Shown here: positions 37,365-61,365 of the stretch, piece by piece
Numbering within the stretch: position 1 is the stretch's first letter
Layout of the letters: every line of letters starts with the position of its first letter
IMG/VR virus record: IMGVR_UViG_3300033074_001936
Coordinates: 30,915-94,914 of that record
Source: a virus
Taxonomy: Duplodnaviria; Caudoviricetes
Length of the DNA: 64,000 bases
Reading direction: 5' to 3' (one strand)
Translations under genes and position numbers: made by a program
The notes under the pieces: model-generated
What the model saw: the letters and a program-made list of their open reading frames with translations, nothing else
Told to the model about the DNA's origin: nothing
The model's database searches: none

Positions 37365-38255
37365 TTAGACCTCCGCCGCCGCGCGGGATCGCCGCGCCCG
37401 CTTGATCGCCTGCACGGCGGGCTCGAGGGCCGCGTTCGACATGCCGTCGAACTCGAGCTGCGCGGGGCGCTTCGTCCGCGCCCCCCGCTTGGAAACCGCG
37501 CGCCCGCGCGCCGCCTCCTCCTCGGGCGCGAGGTCGACCGCCCGGCCGGACGCTCGCGGCGCCTTCCCGGGCAGGACCGCGGTGTCATCCAGGTCCAGGA
37601 ATGCCGTTCGCGCCTGGTTGATCTTCTTGATCGCCTCCTTGTCGATGGCCTGCCCAGCCTCCTCTCCGGCCTTGATGATCTTGCGGGCGGACATGCGCGC
37701 TGCGTCGATGGCGACCTTCACCCGGTCGGCAGCCTCGGGTGTGAGCATGGCTCCGACAGAGCGGGCGCGGTTGGCGGCATCGCGGACCTTCTTGACATCG
37801 AGCTCTTTGATGCCCGCCGCCATCTCGCGCATGAGGTCGCGCACCTCCGAGTTGATGGCGCGCACCGCCTCGACATCATCTTGAGCGACGCGGCCCACGA
37901 TCACATAGATCGACAGCTCGGTGACGCGGGAGCCTTTATTGAACTCATCGGCGATGGCTCGCGCCTTCGCGATGCCGGTGCGCAAGTCATCCTCCCACGC
38001 GTTCGGGCATAGGAGACCAAACGATGTTCGCGAGCACACCGAAGCGATGGCGTGGCGCGCCTCCCCGCGCGCCTTGACCGCGCGGGCGAGCTCGGCTTTG
38101 TTCTTGACTGTGCGCTCGGTCTCCCACCGGGCGCGGGTCTCGTCTGCGCCGACGTTATGTTCCGCCTCGATGTCGCGCGTTTGATACGTCACGTTGCCGC
38201 GGATCGAAGTCTTGAGGCCGACCAGGAGGCCGGGCCGCATGGTGCTGATGGTCAT
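37365..38255 (-). CDS. Hypothetical helical protein near the AAA ATPase
   Basis: AGGAG RBS; 296 aa with typical codon usage. Confidence 0.75.
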   Translation of the reverse strand: MTISTMRPGLLVGLKTSIRGNVTYQTRDIEAEHNVGADETRARWETERTVKNKAELARAVKARGEARHAIASVCSRTSFGLLCPNAWEDDLRTGIAKARAIADEFNKGSRVTELSIYVIVGRVAQDDVEAVRAINSEVRDLMREMAAGIKELDVKKVRDAANRARSVGAMLTPEAADRVKVAIDAARMSARKIIKAGEEAGQAIDKEAIKKINQARTAFLDLDDTAVLPGKAPRASGRAVDLAPEEEAARGRAVSKRGARTKRPAQLEFDGMSNAALEPAVQAIKRARRSRAAAEV

Positions 38256-38531: not shown

Positions 38532-39095
38532 TCAGATGTCGATGCTCCGGCCGCGGCGCGCGGACCGGTCGTTGGCTCGGGACTCGACGCTGCTGGCGAA
38601 CCGCGCGCGCCCCTCGGCCCACTTGCGCAGGCGCTCGATCTTCTCTGCCGCTGTGTCCGCGAGTGGGACGACAGTTGCGGCCGCCTCGAGGAGGTCAGCC
38701 GTCTTGACCTCCCGGCAGTCATCGGCGAACGCCGCGAACATGGCGTCCGGGACAATCGCGGCGATCTCGGCGCCGGTGAACCGGTCGCACTTCGCCGCGA
38801 TTGCGCGCAGCGCCGTGGTGGCGATGACATTCTCCGAGCGATTATTCGCCCGGAGCGCCGCCACGAGGATGGCCTCGCGCTCCTCGAGGGTCGGAAGATC
38901 GACCCACCAGACGTCATCGAAGCGCCCCTTGCGCAAGAGCTCGGGCGGCAACCCCTCGACATCATTGGCGGTGGCGATCACAAATGCCTCACCCTCGCGC
39001 TCCTGCATCCAGCTCAGGATCGCCCCGAGTGCGTCCGCGGAGACCCCGCCGTCGGCGGCGCCGGAAGTCGCCCCCTGCAGTGCTTTTTCGACTTC
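38532..39095 (-). CDS. AAA ATPase (Ycf46-like), exon 2
   Basis: EVEKAL..., LSWMQE, ATAN, LPPELLRKGRFD, FTGAEI. Confidence 0.92.
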   Translation of the reverse strand, partial: EVEKALQGATSGAADGGVSADALGAILSWMQEREGEAFVIATANDVEGLPPELLRKGRFDDVWWVDLPTLEEREAILVAALRANNRSENVIATTALRAIAAKCDRFTGAEIAAIVPDAMFAAFADDCREVKTADLLEAAATVVPLADTAAEKIERLRKWAEGRARFASSVESRANDRSARRGRSIDI

Positions 39096-39918
39096 CAGTT
39101 GTGTTGCGCCGCAGCCGAAACCGCTACGGCTCTTCGGTTCTGGCCGAAGCTCGGACCATATCATCTGACCTGCCGTGAACGATGCTGTAGCACTTCCAGC
39201 AGAACCCTTTGGCGTTGTGGGTTCGCTCAGTAGTGCCACATCTTCGGCACTGGTCGAAGTCGCGCGCCCAGCGATCCAAGACTCGGTGCACGCGCTGGTG
39301 GCAGCGCCGGCAAAGAGTCTGAAGATTTCGCATGGAGTTATTTGGGCGCTTCGAGCCTCTGCCGTTGCCATCTTTGTGATGAACCACTAGCTGCTTTTTA
39401 CTTCCGCACTCAGTGCAGCAGTAGCCGTCGCGCTTTAGGACGGCTTCCCGCTTCCCACTGAAGTGCTCCTCCTCCCGCTTCAGTTTGTTTAGTATTCTGA
39501 GGCGGGCGAAGTTCCGTTGTCTCCAAGCCTCGATTTGAGCAGTAACTCTCTCGAGGTTGGCCGCGCGGTACGCTGATAGGTAGCAGTAGCGGCACTTACC
39601 TTTCGCCATGTGCGGGCGATCGGTACGTTCACAAACAACGCATCGTTCGTATCGTCGGTTCCACATGAAAAAGATTTTTTCATATTCCCGCGACATTTGC
39701 AAACCAGCCGGGCGCTTCGGAACCTCTTGGTTCCTACTCCTTCGCAGGATGGTCTCTGAACCTTCCCCGGTTCTCGGGGCTTGGCTGCTGATTGCCCGCT
39801 CTCGTGAATTTTCAAGCATTCGCGTTTGTCGTTCCTGACTGCGCTGTAGCTTCACGAGTTCAGATCGGGGTTTCCAGCAATTCACCCGGTTTATTTTACG
39901 GCTGGACTCAAGTCGTTA
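39096..39918 (-). mobile_element. Group I intron (IA2-like), 823 nt
   Basis: P1 GCUGGAU/GUCCAGC with U-G at the splice site; P GAAUUGCUGGAAA; Q AAUCAGCAG; R GUUCAGAGACCAU; S GAUAUGGUCC; P7.1 and P7.2 hairpins; terminal G; P10 CGACUU/AAGUCG; splicing restores VVWLD-EVEK. Confidence 0.95.
39124..39696 (-). CDS. Intron-encoded HNH homing endonuclease
   Basis: RDGYCCTECG...VHHKDGN...NN...NLQTLCRRCHQRVH, flanked by two Cys/His zinc-finger-like repeats; lies between the R and S elements. Confidence 0.9.
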   Translation of the reverse strand: MSREYEKIFFMWNRRYERCVVCERTDRPHMAKGKCRYCYLSAYRAANLERVTAQIEAWRQRNFARLRILNKLKREEEHFSGKREAVLKRDGYCCTECGSKKQLVVHHKDGNGRGSKRPNNSMRNLQTLCRRCHQRVHRVLDRWARDFDQCRRCGTTERTHNAKGFCWKCYSIVHGRSDDMVRASARTEEP

Positions 39919-41007
39919 ATCCAGCCAGACCACGCAGCGCCCGATGGCCTCGATGACGCGCAGGGCGCGCCGCAGATTGCCCTCGGACTCGCCGACGAAC
40001 TTCGACTTGAGCGCCCCCAGGTCGAGGCGCAGGAGGGGGACGCCCCATGCCGTCGCGATGGCCTTGGCCGTGAGCGACTTGCCGCAGCCGGGCACCCCGA
40101 CGAGGAGAGCGCCCTTGGGCGGCAGCAGCCCATACTTGCGTGCCCGCGGGCTGTACGCCGCCGCCCGCGAGATCAGCCACGCCTTGAGGTTGTCGAGGCC
40201 CCCGATGGCATCAAGCCCGTCGGGGATCGGATCATGCCACTCGAGGATGCGCTCTCGCGCGATGACCCGCTTCTTCTCGGCGGCAACCGTCGCCGGGATG
40301 ATCTGCCGGGACTGGACGAGTGATTTGGCGTAGCACGCCTGCGCCTCCTCCCCTGTCAGCCCGACCGTCGCATCGATGGCGGCCTCGCGAGCGCCCTTGC
40401 CGAGGGCGCGGGCGCGCACACCATCCGGGAGTGCCTCCACCGCCGCGTCGAGGATGTCGCCGATCTCGGTGCGATCGGGCAGCGGCCACTCGATAGCCGT
40501 TGCGGAGGTCGCGAGCTCCGGGGGGATGTCGCCACCGGCCGACAGCACGATAATCGCCTGCGCATACTCCCGCGGCGCCGCAGGCAGCGCGCGGGTCAAG
40601 TTGCGCAGGGCCCGCAGCGGCGCGGCTCCGGTCAGGTCGCGCAGCCACGGGGCGAGGTCGCGCATGATCCAGACTGCCCGCTCGGCCCCGCCGCTTGATG
40701 CGCGAGCTTGAATGACTCCGAGCATGTCGCCCGGGTCAGTCCCCGCGCCGCCGAGCCCGGGGATGACATTTCCCGCGATGGTCCGGGCGCCCTGCGCGAT
40801 GTCCCACGTGTAGGGAACGTAGCCGGCCGACGCCGCCGCCTCGACCAAGTATTGCTCAACGCGGGCCTCCTCGCGGGTGGTCACCCATAGGAGCGGGTTG
40901 CGGGCGCGCAGCAGCGCCGCGACGTCGGCGGCGGCCTTCTCGCTGCGGGAGAGCGGGCTCGGGGCGGCGGCCTCGCGGGCCGGCTTTGTCTTCGCGATAA
41001 CAGTCAT
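39919..41007 (-). CDS. AAA ATPase (Ycf46-like), exon 1
   Basis: TREEAR, IGGLDNLKAWL, Walker A GVPGCGKS, KFVGESE; ends at VVWLD; spliced product 550 aa. Confidence 0.92.
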
Positions 41008-57708: not shown

Positions 57709-60700
57709 GTGGCGTTCTTCGGGGTTCCCGCTCCCAAGAGCGCGCGCCGGGGCGCGCCGCAGCGCTCGGGTGCGGTCTCTGTCGAGTTCCTCCACAAACA
57801 CGAGTGTGCTGTATGCCCCCTCAATAATCAGTCGGGCCTGGTGCACCCCCACATGAAGCCGACCGGCGCGGCGCGGCCCCTCGCGTACCTGGTCGGCGGG
57901 GCCCCGGGCGCCGACGAGGACCGCCGGGGCGCACACTTCGTCGGCTCCGCCGGCCGCCTCCTGCGGCGATACCTCCCCGAGAAGTGGCTGAGCAAAGTTC
58001 GCTTCAACAACGTAGTTCGGACCCGGCCCCCGAAGGACCGGGACCCGTCGCGGGTCGAAGTCGAGGCGTGCTTTCCTGCTGGAACTTTTGTCGAGCCGAT
58101 CGGGCCGGTTAAGAGCTCATATAAGCGGTGGTACGATGGCCCGCTTGTGACGGTTAAAACCGCGAGTGGGCGCATCCTCACCGGAACCCCAAACCACCCT
58201 GTATTTACAGTCGAGGGCGAGACCGCGCTCAAAGACCTCAAGATCGGCGACTACGCGTTCTGCGCAAGCGCCAGTGAGCCCGACGGCGCGCGGCGCCCAG
58301 ACGTGGATAACAAACCAGCCCGCATTGATGAGGTAGTTGAGGCGTTCAGCAAAGTCGCGAAGATGAAACGGATGCGTACCAGCGCGCTCGATTTCCACGG
58401 CGATGGTATCGTTGATGGCGAGGTCGATGTTGTAAGGGCCAGCGGCGAGTTGATGGGTAATTTTCAAGTCGGCGCGTACTCGCAAGAGCAGTTTTCTCAT
58501 CCGCACTTCGCCCTTTCCCAGCTGGGACCGCGAGGTCTGGCGCACAGCGGCGGTCTTGAGCGATGCCTCAGCGTACTTACCATGGTTGCACCTAAGCACG
58601 CGTTGCTCGCGGGTGCGCGTCCGCATCCACAAAACCATCTGCTCGGACTGGGTCCGTACCTGTGCTCCGTTTGCTTTGAGTACTTTCACAATCTGTGGAG
58701 CGCCGGTTTTGAACACGCGCGCGAGCTCCTCGGAGCTTTCACCTTTGCTGTATCTTTTAACGATCTCCTTGGCGGGAAGCGCGCGCCAGCTGACAGGCGT
58801 CCACGCCACGCGGGAGGCGGCGCTTTTATCCCGCAGCTTCATTCCGGCCTTGATAAGGAATCTCTTGATTGTAGTCCAGTCCGAGCCGGTGAGCCTTTGG
58901 AGGTCAGCGAGCGACCTACCCTCCCGGTAGAGCTTGACGAGATCGTAGCGATAGAAGTTACGCGATCGTTTAGGGGCCATGTTTACAACCTCGAGACAGG
59001 GAGCCATAAGTATATAGCAGATGGCTTCATTGTATCCAACTGCCGCCCGAGCGTCGCCCGCGACATCGAGGAGTCGAGCCCCGCGGCCATCATCGGGTTC
59101 GGCAACGTGCCGCTCGAGTGGGCGACCGGCGAGACCGGCATCAGCAAGTGGTGCGGCCGGCGCGTCCCGGTCCTGGTCGAGGGGCGCCCCTACTGGTTTT
59201 TTCCGGTCCGCCACCCGGAGGACATCTTGCGCGACCCGAAGCGCCGCGAGGTGTACGAGGGCGGGCGCGACCGCTACGGCTCCGAGGCCGAGTTTCAGTT
59301 CGTGCTTCACGTTCGCGCCGCCCTCGAGGCGATCGAGGCGGGGCTGCCTGAGCCGGCGGTGCACTCCGCGGACGCCGCGCTCGAGGGCATCGAGTGGGTC
59401 GCGGGCGCCGGCGCCGACGACGTCGAGTGGGTCCGGGCGTTCCTGCGCCGCGCGTCGCGCCGCAAGCTCGCGGGCGTGGACTACGAGACCAACGACCTGC
59501 GCCCCTACGCGCCGGGGGCGAAGATCCTCACGGCGGCGGTCGCGACCGCGCGGGACGGGGCGCTCGCCTTCCCCCTCGACCACCGGGAGGCGCGCTGGAC
59601 CCGCGCGCAGCGCGCGGCGATCGACGAGGCGTGGCGGGAGTTCTTGTACGAGGCCGAGTGCCGGAAAGTCGCGCACAACTTGACTTTTGAGATGGAGTGG
59701 TCGGCGCACTTCTACGGGAAAGACTGCCTGCGCGCGGGGCGGTGGGGCGACTCGCTGGCGCAGGCCTACATCCTGGACGAGCGCTCGGAGGGAAAGCCCG
59801 GTGCCCACAGCCTCGAGTTCCTGTGCGTCCAGTACTTCGGGATCAACATCAAGAAGCTGGCGGGAGTAAACCGAACCAACTTGGACGCCGAGCCCCTCCC
59901 GAAAGTGCTTCGGTACAACGGCCTCGACGCGAAGTACCACCAGCTGCTCTACGCGGAGCAGCTGCGCGCGCTCCGCGCCGCCGACCTGTCCGCGCTCTAC
60001 GCGGAGCACCTCGAGCGGGTCCCGGCCGCGGTCCTGACCCAGCTCAAGGGGGTACCGGTCGACCAGTCGGTCGCGCACCGCCTCGGGAAGAAGTACATGC
60101 GGCGCATGCTCGACGCCGAGCGCGCCATGCGCGAGATGCCGATCGTGCGAAAGTACGAGCGCGCGAAGGCTAAGAAGTTTCGGCCGTCCGCGAACGAGGA
60201 CGTCAAGGACGTTCTCCACGGGGCGGGCATCCACCTCGACGTCGCCGACGTCGAGGCCCTCGCCGGGGTCGACCACGACTTCGTGCGCGAGGAGGTCAAG
60301 TGGCGCAAGGCCGCCAAGATCTACGGCACCTACTTGGTCCCGGTCATGGGCGAGGACGCCCGCGCCGCGCTCGAGGCCATGCGCCGCGCGGGGCTGGAGG
60401 AGATCGGGGGCATGCTCGAGTCCCGGGAGCTGCGGCCGGCGCGGGTCTACCCGGACGGTCTCATGCACCCGCAGACCAACGTTAACCGGGTCAAGACGTC
60501 GCGGACCTCCTCGGACGACCCGAACTATCAGAACTGGCCGAAGCGCGGGGCCGCGGACGCGATCGAGGTCCGCGGTACGGTGCGGCCGCTCGACCCCGAC
60601 GAGGTGGTGGTGTCGTTCGACTACGGCCAGATCCAGGCCCGCAATGTCGGCATGGAGTCGCTCGACCGCGCCCTCCTCGACGCGTTCTGGAGCGGTTATG

Positions 60701-61365
60701 ACATCCACTACGCCTTCATGGAGCACCTCGCGCGCATCTACCCGCGCTGGGTGAAGGAGGGGGTCAAGACACTCGCGCGTGACAAAAACCTAGTTAAGAA
60801 GTACCGGAACGACGTCAAACACGGCTTCGTGTTTGCGGCATTCTTCGGCGCGCAGCCCAAGAAGTTCGCGGAGGTCCTCGAGATCCCGCTCTCGGCCGCC
60901 GAGAAGCTCGCCGACATCTTCTGGGACCGGTTCGGGGGGATCAGGAAGTGGCACCGGCGCCTCGAGGTCGACTACTACCGTACCGGCTACGTTACCGGCC
61001 ACGCGGGCTACCGGCGGCGCGCCCCGGTGAGCTACAACGAGCGCATCAACTCACCGATCCAGGCCGACGAGGCCAAGATCGTCCTCGACGCCATGATCCG
61101 CCTGTCCAAGATCGACCACGACTACCTGCAGGCCAACATGGAGATACACGACGACCTGACCTTCATCTGGCCCAAGAAGAAGGTCGACGAGCTCGCGGAG
61201 ATCGTGGTCCGGGAGATGCTTACCGTGCCGTTCGAGTGGGCGCGGACCACCCCGATCGTGGTCGAGATGTCGGTCGGCCCCGACTGGGCATCCCAGAAGG
61301 GCGCCGGGGAGTTCGCGTCGCACGAGTATGATGGGATCGACATGCCGAGGAGCTGCCCGATATGA
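57709..61365 (+). CDS. Family A DNA polymerase with N-terminal family-4-like uracil-DNA glycosylase domain; contains an intein
   Basis: UDG: CAVCPL, GGAPGADED..G.HFVGSAG, HP; exonuclease: DYET, AHN..FE, YNGLD; polymerase: TSRTSSDDPNYQN, DYGQIQAR, NSPIQ, IHDDL. Confidence 0.93.
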   Translation: MAFFGVPAPKSARRGAPQRSGAVSVEFLHKHECAVCPLNNQSGLVHPHMKPTGAARPLAYLVGGAPGADEDRRGAHFVGSAGRLLRRYLPEKWLSKVRFNNVVRTRPPKDRDPSRVEVEACFPAGTFVEPIGPVKSSYKRWYDGPLVTVKTASGRILTGTPNHPVFTVEGETALKDLKIGDYAFCASASEPDGARRPDVDNKPARIDEVVEAFSKVAKMKRMRTSALDFHGDGIVDGEVDVVRASGELMGNFQVGAYSQEQFSHPHFALSQLGPRGLAHSGGLERCLSVLTMVAPKHALLAGARPHPQNHLLGLGPYLCSVCFEYFHNLWSAGFEHARELLGAFTFAVSFNDLLGGKRAPADRRPRHAGGGAFIPQLHSGLDKESLDCSPVRAGEPLEVSERPTLPVELDEIVAIEVTRSFRGHVYNLETGSHKYIADGFIVSNCRPSVARDIEESSPAAIIGFGNVPLEWATGETGISKWCGRRVPVLVEGRPYWFFPVRHPEDILRDPKRREVYEGGRDRYGSEAEFQFVLHVRAALEAIEAGLPEPAVHSADAALEGIEWVAGAGADDVEWVRAFLRRASRRKLAGVDYETNDLRPYAPGAKILTAAVATARDGALAFPLDHREARWTRAQRAAIDEAWREFLYEAECRKVAHNLTFEMEWSAHFYGKDCLRAGRWGDSLAQAYILDERSEGKPGAHSLEFLCVQYFGINIKKLAGVNRTNLDAEPLPKVLRYNGLDAKYHQLLYAEQLRALRAADLSALYAEHLERVPAAVLTQLKGVPVDQSVAHRLGKKYMRRMLDAERAMREMPIVRKYERAKAKKFRPSANEDVKDVLHGAGIHLDVADVEALAGVDHDFVREEVKWRKAAKIYGTYLVPVMGEDARAALEAMRRAGLEEIGGMLESRELRPARVYPDGLMHPQTNVNRVKTSRTSSDDPNYQNWPKRGAADAIEVRGTVRPLDPDEVVVSFDYGQIQARNVGMESLDRALLDAFWSGYDIHYAFMEHLARIYPRWVKEGVKTLARDKNLVKKYRNDVKHGFVFAAFFGAQPKKFAEVLEIPLSAAEKLADIFWDRFGGIRKWHRRLEVDYYRTGYVTGHAGYRRRAPVSYNERINSPIQADEAKIVLDAMIRLSKIDHDYLQANMEIHDDLTFIWPKKKVDELAEIVVREMLTVPFEWARTTPIVVEMSVGPDWASQKGAGEFASHEYDGIDMPRSCPI
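58069..59040 (+). mobile_element. Intein (324 aa) in the UDG domain
   Basis: C1 CFPAGT, block B TPNHPV, block F GHVYNLET, block G IVSN then +1 Cys; removal restores VEVEA-CRPSV; lower GC than flanks. Confidence 0.93.
58117..58980 (-). CDS. Antisense gene inside the intein: two HTH repeats plus a Vsr/DUF559-like endonuclease (287 aa)
   Basis: GAGGT 7 nt before ATG; repeats LY..G.S...L......I...L...G...R..S; GEVRMRKLL, Q...GPYNIDLA, IAVEIE...H, R.NYL.NAGWFVIHVW. Confidence 0.85.
   Translation of the reverse strand: MAPKRSRNFYRYDLVKLYREGRSLADLQRLTGSDWTTIKRFLIKAGMKLRDKSAASRVAWTPVSWRALPAKEIVKRYSKGESSEELARVFKTGAPQIVKVLKANGAQVRTQSEQMVLWMRTRTREQRVLRCNHGKYAEASLKTAAVRQTSRSQLGKGEVRMRKLLLRVRADLKITHQLAAGPYNIDLAINDTIAVEIERAGTHPFHLRDFAERLNYLINAGWFVIHVWAPRAVGLTGACAERVVADLEVFERGLALDCKYRVVWGSGEDAPTRGFNRHKRAIVPPLI

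Follow-up and report, generated by a model that had tools for sequence, protein, structure and literature searches.

A probable mobile group I intron with an HNH endonuclease gene, inserted at Walker B in the gene for a phage AAA ATPase

In the AAA ATPase gene of an uncultured phage, the Walker B codons GAT (Asp) and GAA (Glu) are separated by an 823 nt insert that is very probably a mobile IA-type group I intron. It lies on the minus strand at positions 39096-39918 of the window, the 64,000 nt stretch of DNA that was analysed, which represents positions 30915-94914 of a 94.9 kb IMG/VR contig (IMGVR_UViG_3300033074_001936) with a GC content of ~64% and a CheckV completeness of 88%. The phage is ~95 kb in size and siphovirus-like, the window also encoding a tape-measure protein, tail fibres, SbcCD-like nucleases, a DnaB helicase and a large DNA polymerase; Pfam searches with the neighbouring genes found nothing. 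The insert, classed as IA-type through having P7.1 and P7.2 and lacking P2, opens with an in-frame TAA and terminates in G39096. This is a known sort of element, to which the present example adds one more case without a new mechanism.

The interrupted gene is composed of exon 1 (39919-41007, minus strand), encoding 363 aa that include the N-terminal domain, the Walker A motif GVPGCGKS and Walker B through its Asp, and exon 2 (38532-39095, minus strand), encoding 187 aa and a stop codon, with the Walker B Glu, the RKGRFD arginine-finger region and the lid. Exon 1 finishes ...GTC TGG CTG GAT, its protein terminating ...GRCVVWLD with the TAA directly after, and exon 2 begins GAA GTC GAA, its frame from 39095 reading EVEKALQG...; the joined exons (363 + 187) give a 550 aa protein that reads VVWLD|EVEK across the junction. 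The earlier note, made from the sequence of the window, had placed the boundaries at CTG GAT (39919) and GAA GTC GAA (39095) and predicted this product, and was right in both.

Protein alignment to intron-less homologues fixes the splice site independently of the RNA helices. Against gp96 of mycobacteriophage Corndog, which is uninterrupted and 566 aa long, exon 1 aligns to residues 21-379 (49% identity), finishing on the Asp, and exon 2 to residues 380-566 (55% identity), starting on the Glu, such that the Walker B motif hhhhDE is exactly rebuilt when the exons are joined. Similarly, exon 1 covers positions 15-371 of the PHROG 8638 profile and exon 2 positions 372-557, putting the junction at 371|372, and the Pfam AAA profile (PF00004) is matched at 2-64 by exon 1 and at 76-129 by exon 2, which also matches AAA_lid_3. 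These alignments mean that 39918-39096 is an insertion, with no residue lost or gained.

The host protein has a ~290 aa N-terminal domain followed by a single classical AAA domain, and is predicted from its sequence to be a classical-clade AAA ATPase of PHROG 8638, like Corndog gp96. The nearest solved structures, reached via the intron-less gp96, are of Cdc48/p97 D2 (E 1e-45); NCBIfam matches to CDC48, FtsH and PAN were all sub-threshold, and close homologues carry the JGI name 'SpoVK/Ycf46/Vps4 family AAA+-type ATPase'. The previous description of the protein as 'Ycf46-like' is therefore apt as a COG-level label (COG0464), but goes no further than that level. The family is widespread, 2,479 matches at E <= 1e-20 having been obtained from the candidates that were scored. 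A reading of the gene as part of a defence system was dropped, as PADLOC returned only weak, domain-level matches to IetA and ZorE.

When scanned with Rfam, positions 39132-39928 (minus strand) matched the full length (1-253) of the RF00028 (Intron_gpI) covariance model with a score of 55.1 bits (E 2.9e-11), above the gathering score of 50 bits. This was the sole RNA family match in the window and the sole group I match in the 94.9 kb record, and the scan, which the earlier note had proposed, bears out the group I intron that it had placed at 39096-39918. The P1, P10, P3, P7.1/P7.2, P9 and terminal G that had been recognised there are likewise present, the pairings having been checked by script.

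All the helices are on the minus strand. P1, which also appears in the minimum free energy (MFE) fold, pairs GGCUGGAU of exon 1 (39926-39919) with the guide GUCCAGCC (39907-39900), the wobble pair U39919.G39907 being at the 5' splice site, and P10 pairs CGACUU in the P1 loop (39915-39910) with AAGUCG in exon 2 (39094-39089), the terminal G39096 and this exon 2 strand together occupying 39089-39096. P3 (CCGGGUG, 39889-39883, with CGCCCGG, 39714-39708) spans 39708-39889 and surrounds P4-P6 (P4, 39879-39874 with 39791-39786; P6, 39779-39775 with 39769-39765), the 5' strand of P7 (GACCA, 39754-39750, pairing with UGGUC, 39158-39154), P7.1 (UCCU-GCGA-AGGA, 39749-39738) and P7.2 (GGAACC-AAGA-GGUUCC, 39734-39719). 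P8 is formed by CUGGUUUGC (39707-39699) and GCAGGUCAG (39173-39165), and the region comprising P8', J8/7 and P7' (39154-39173, located through both the Rfam alignment and script pairing) includes GAUAUGGUC, which is invariant across the intron copies. Two further hairpins, P9 (39149-39132) and P9.1 (39129-39109), follow. The element would be assigned to an IA2-like subgroup on the feature of P7.1/P7.2, plus the missing P2, rather than through a formal subgroup model. As had been remarked, the RF00028 alignment finds a C-G pair in the GACCA/UGGUC helix of P7 where the consensus has U-A; this is not unique, and its occurrence in four other IMG/VR introns makes it a trait of a lineage.

Folding analyses and comparison between copies are in agreement with this structure. 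The 5' 231 nt have a folding z score of -4.2, and replacing the ORF-containing loop with GAAA resulted in an MFE fold with every helix except the P3/P7 pseudoknot; the 3' 116 nt folded alone gave z = -0.85, which was uninformative. Across five distinct intron lineages, double compensatory changes were found at 18 of 63 base pairs, located in P3, P7.1, P7.2, P9 and P9.1 (those in the last two coming from L110, L108 and L105) and in a hairpin at the start codon of the intron-encoded gene. P4, P6 and P7 are nearly invariant, and covariation is uninformative for those helices. The P10 pairing was absent from L110 and L111, the most distant of the copies, as judged by eye from their flanking sequences.

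Intron-less alleles, for which the earlier note had called, are plentiful: besides Corndog gp96, they were found at 72 IMG/VR loci and on 79 genome contigs. At 72 of 74 homologous IMG/VR loci (identity 53-72%), the exon 2 match follows that of exon 1 with 0 nt between them; the gene at one of the remaining loci runs off its contig, and that at the other, L069, is truly truncated. Of 80 homologues from genome collections, 79 were contiguous (with a tolerance of up to 30 nt) and the remaining one ends with its contig. L069 was considered as a second interrupted allele and rejected, its gene stopping 21 codons past the DE and having no Rfam match, and the C-terminal half of the ATPase was found nowhere in this complete 66 kb genome. 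At this locus (L069:3360-4652 of IMGVR_UViG_3300006175_000006, which has terminal repeats), the ATPase diverges after GGADGGV, 21 codons beyond the DE, and then stops. Clusters P0036 and P0069 leave the family sequence near the same point (...GGVSS and ...GGADG), and the GGADG region may be either a recurrent hotspot for breaks or frameshifts or a second insertion site.

Intron-bearing alleles were recovered by using exon 1 as a query against 5.8 billion proteins, which returned six clusters (66-81% identical) ending exactly at ...GRCVVWLD, the full-length relatives of which are mostly 520-545 aa long. The corresponding contigs, which are metagenomic and were assembled in Logan and ENA from six or more different samples, all carry inserts of 819-826 nt at the same nucleotide site, each starting TAAC, ending AACTG and containing an HNH ORF; counting the window, all seven intron copies finish in AACTG. 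Five of the six sister loci pass the RF00028 gathering score (53.8-69.4 bits), and L110, the most divergent copy, scores under this cut-off. At all eight intron-bearing loci, representing six distinct alleles besides that of the window, exon 1 ends TGGCTGGAT and exon 2 begins GAA; intron-less alleles mostly have GAC|GAG at the site. The T ending exon 1 in intron-bearing alleles is needed to form the U.G pair. It had been predicted that automated annotation would break such genes, and the public calls for all six sister alleles do stop at ...VVWLD.

The distribution of the insert also speaks to whether it is genuine. The window comes from one metagenomic contig, and the GC content of the intron (~55%) is below that of its surroundings (64-72%), as might be seen were the insert an assembly artefact or contaminant. 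That it recurs at the same nucleotide in six or more further samples, assembled independently in Logan and ENA, makes this explanation scarcely credible, and a lower GC content is usual for mobile elements that spread horizontally. Chimeric assembly could in theory start from identical introns, but the finding would remain.

Another explanation is that the intron has decayed and no longer splices, leaving the ATPase either a pseudogene or two separate polypeptides. The Rfam score exceeds the gathering threshold by only ~5 bits, gene callers list two or three ORFs at intron-bearing loci, and the true absence of the C-terminal half in L069 shows that the gene can be lost. Decay is nevertheless improbable, given that the core helices pair, covariation is evident in P3, P7.1, P7.2, P9 and P9.1, and hhhhDE is exactly restored at the junction. 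Furthermore, exon 2 lacks a conserved start codon, the sole in-frame ATG lying 276 nt upstream, within the nuclease gene, and the gene calls for exon 2 in relatives beginning at differing internal sites. In each of the seven intron-bearing alleles, both exons are conserved and keep an open frame, which is also a better argument that the ATPase is needed than the one originally advanced, that the intron is intact; the logic of the latter is weak, since recent mobility and a homing nuclease account for intactness. Ribozyme-catalysed splicing of 39918-39096 (minus strand) is consequently the preferred reading, and remains a prediction from structure and conservation.

That the insert is an intron had been read correctly, but the HNH ORF filling most of it was overlooked in the earlier note, as was its recent transfer. 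This intact gene (39124-39666, minus strand), accounting for approximately two thirds of the intron length and encoding a 180 aa putative homing endonuclease plus a stop codon (39126-39124), is situated in the P8 loop, its final ~50 nt overlapping P8', J8/7, P7', P9 and the start of P9.1. The product matches Pfam HNH (PF01844) with 27.2 bits against a cut-off of 21.4, and 12 of its 14 PHROG matches are to HNH endonucleases, the others being one 'terminase small subunit' and one of unknown function. The start is the ATG at 39666 (MWNRR...), kept in five lineages; an ATG at 39696 was rejected through not being conserved in L105 or L108, and the 253 aa ORF with a GTG start (39885-39124) listed by the ORF finder was discarded as over-extended into the ribozyme core. 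The motif HHKDGN...N...LCxxCH and every Cys are conserved in the five lineages, two zinc-ribbon-like motifs (CxxC-x9-AKGxCxxCY) being positioned one on each side of the HNH core. The ORF is open in all five of these lineages (nucleotide identity 65-82%); dN/dS, wherever dS could be estimated, is 0.07-0.15, and the gene is under purifying selection. Site-specific cleavage by the HNH protein would be expected from these features. Searches of phage isolates and IMG/VR for close relatives of the nuclease returned just partial matches of 30-45% identity, the best among sequenced phages having 36-42% identity over part of the length and the best in IMG/VR 32%.

A conserved hairpin, AUGAAAAA-AUC-UUUUUCAU (39665-39683, minus strand), has an 8 bp stem that is perfect in all copies, an A-U to G-C compensatory change having occurred in L111, and hides the AU, the first two bases, of the nuclease start codon. 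This suggests that translation of the nuclease is controlled, resembling the translational control of the intron endonucleases of T4. No convincing ribosome-binding site was found 5' of the start, which in conjunction with the partly buried start codon means that expression of the nuclease may be conditional.

The clearest indication of mobility is the discrepancy between intron and exon divergence. The intron of the window agrees with that of L104 at all 823 positions and with that of L106 at 99.9%, in exons that share ~80% nucleotide identity with those of the window and encode proteins 81% and 77% identical to it, respectively. In L104 a tract of ~100 nt upstream of the intron is 98% identical, after which identity falls, and in L106 the first mismatch lies 9 nt 5' of the splice site; downstream of the intron both share 22 identical nucleotides with the window before identity drops. 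Breaks in identity beside the intron are what homing with short co-conversion tracts would be expected to leave. By contrast, the introns of L105, L108, L111 and L110 are 82%, 81%, 70% and 65% identical to that of the window, roughly as their exons diverge, which fits a history of vertical descent for these copies. In a quick tree of exon 1 from the 103 best clusters, seven intron-bearing alleles are dispersed among 94 intron-less ones, occupying four or more separate places, the intron-bearing P0005 being sister to the intron-less P0014 with an aLRT of 97.

This vertical component might be extended to all copies, with the element splicing but being an immobile passenger, the HNH ORF of which is not an active homing enzyme. 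The parallel divergence of intron and exons in L105, L108, L111 and L110 would accord with this; however, introns of 100.0% and 99.9% identity in ~80% identical exons, with breaks at or near the intron edges, the strong purifying selection on the nuclease ORF and the patchy presence across the host gene tree render immobility highly improbable. Near-identical introns in divergent exons and the patchy distribution instead indicate that the intron is mobile and appears to have moved recently.

The mechanism proposed begins with folding of the pre-mRNA into a ribozyme comprising P1-P10. Guanosine or GTP would attack after U39919, which forms the U.G pair of P1, and the 3' OH of exon 1, once free, would attack past G39096. 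Ligation of the exons (...VVWLDEVEK...) would then permit translation of a single 550 aa chain with Walker A, Walker B, the arginine-finger region and the lid; RNA left unspliced would be translated only as far as the TAA that opens the intron, yielding an inactive 363 aa fragment. In a cell shared with a related, intron-less phage, the 180 aa HNH enzyme would cut the empty D|E site, and repair from the intron-bearing copy would install the intron along with anywhere from a few to ~100 flanking bases, representing homing.

A role for the intron beyond that of a passenger is an unlikely but conceivable extension of this scheme. In one version, the nuclease might be a weapon that cuts the ATPase gene of intron-less co-infecting relatives, by analogy with the PhiPA3 nuclease (PMC11620839). 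In another, GTP-dependent splicing and the start-codon hairpin might time or gate the production of active ATPase, and the Walker-A-only fragment of 363 aa from unspliced RNA could poison hexamers.

Many features of the element recall characterised phage introns, for instance the IA-type introns in the DNA polymerase genes of SPO1 and SP82, which encode the HNH enzymes I-HmuI and I-HmuII. Similarly, Bastillevirinae harbour IA-type group I introns with HNH homing endonucleases (PMC11878797), and a weapon role against co-infecting relatives has been shown for gp210, the nuclease of the RNA polymerase intron of PhiPA3 (PMC11620839). The insertion of phage group I introns with HNH genes into the catalytic motifs of NTP-using enzymes is well documented (PMC11878797, PMC11620839, PMC3706429). 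In common with these three systems, the intron described here belongs to the RF00028 family, has the P7.1/P7.2 extension, carries an HNH gene in a peripheral loop and overlapping core elements, occupies a conserved catalytic motif of an NTP-using enzyme and is patchily distributed; over 80-150 nt, its core shares 70-75% identity with introns of Aeromonas, Staphylococcus, Vibrio and other phages. It differs in its host gene, a PHROG 8638 AAA ATPase, in the two CxxC...CxxCY motifs round the HNH core, and in having C-G for the consensus U-A in P7.

A literature search returned no description of an intron in the PHROG 8638 ATPase family. The earlier characterisation of the ATPase as an atypical host gene was overstated, as can be seen from two sets of precedents. 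Yutin et al. [quoted passage not shown] Likewise, Walker motifs are frequent targets of elements that spread by homing endonucleases; inteins are found in the Walker B or P-loop motifs of PolIII gamma, RFC, MCM and DnaB, that of PolIII gamma being in Walker B (PMC4760082). These too are elements driven by homing endonucleases in the most conserved motif of an ATPase, where the target is unable to drift, although they are excised from the protein and the present intron from RNA. A related element elsewhere is the L082 intron (IMGVR_UViG_3300037458_000738, 512-1266; 62.6 bits in Rfam), which has the same P7 GACCA/UGGUC and P7.1/P7.2, and in P8 an HNH gene the product of which is 37% identical to the nuclease of the window and has the N-terminal CxxC...AKGxCxxCY in common. 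Its host gene is unrelated and unannotated, from which it follows that this lineage of intron plus nuclease has colonised at least two unrelated genes. A separate locus, L077:534-1364 (IMGVR_UViG_3300004097_000518), has three RF00028 matches (95.5, 74.9 and 67.5 bits) within ~830 bases, and appears to hold three introns in tandem in one short stretch of a gene.

Other observations concern the phage itself. The ATPase gene is followed in the window by a ~300 aa PHROG 11021 gene (37365-38255, minus strand) with no Pfam match, and genes of similar size follow the ATPase in Corndog (gp95, L001:2942-3742) and at the sister loci; this likeness is in size and position only, and the ATPase and the downstream gene may constitute a two-gene module. 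Residues 119-281 of the 1218 aa DNA polymerase ORF (57709-61365, plus strand) match a PHROG named 'head protein' (E 7.5e-32), which may reflect either a misnamed PHROG or an inserted domain. As a clue to the host, DnaB was searched, which gave only a 36% match to an Edwardsiella phage. An intron-less ATPase homologue of 53% identity in Bradyrhizobium sp. Tv2a-2 (L118, NZ_AXAI01000008.1:156530-163636), presumably within a prophage, is the sole lead to a cultured host for this phage group, and together with the 64% GC content hints weakly at a host among the Alphaproteobacteria.

The main value of the finding is in its clear homing footprint and in corrected gene calls. Public annotations of at least seven phage alleles are truncated at ...VVWLD, with a spurious overlapping ORF called for exon 2. 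The empty sites, vertically diverged copies and recent identical transfers with short co-conversion tracts constitute a natural homing series. With it, homing could be followed in uncultured phages, and what this HNH nuclease, with its two zinc-ribbon-like motifs, requires of its target could be explored. The intron also provides further evidence for homing elements settling in Walker motifs.
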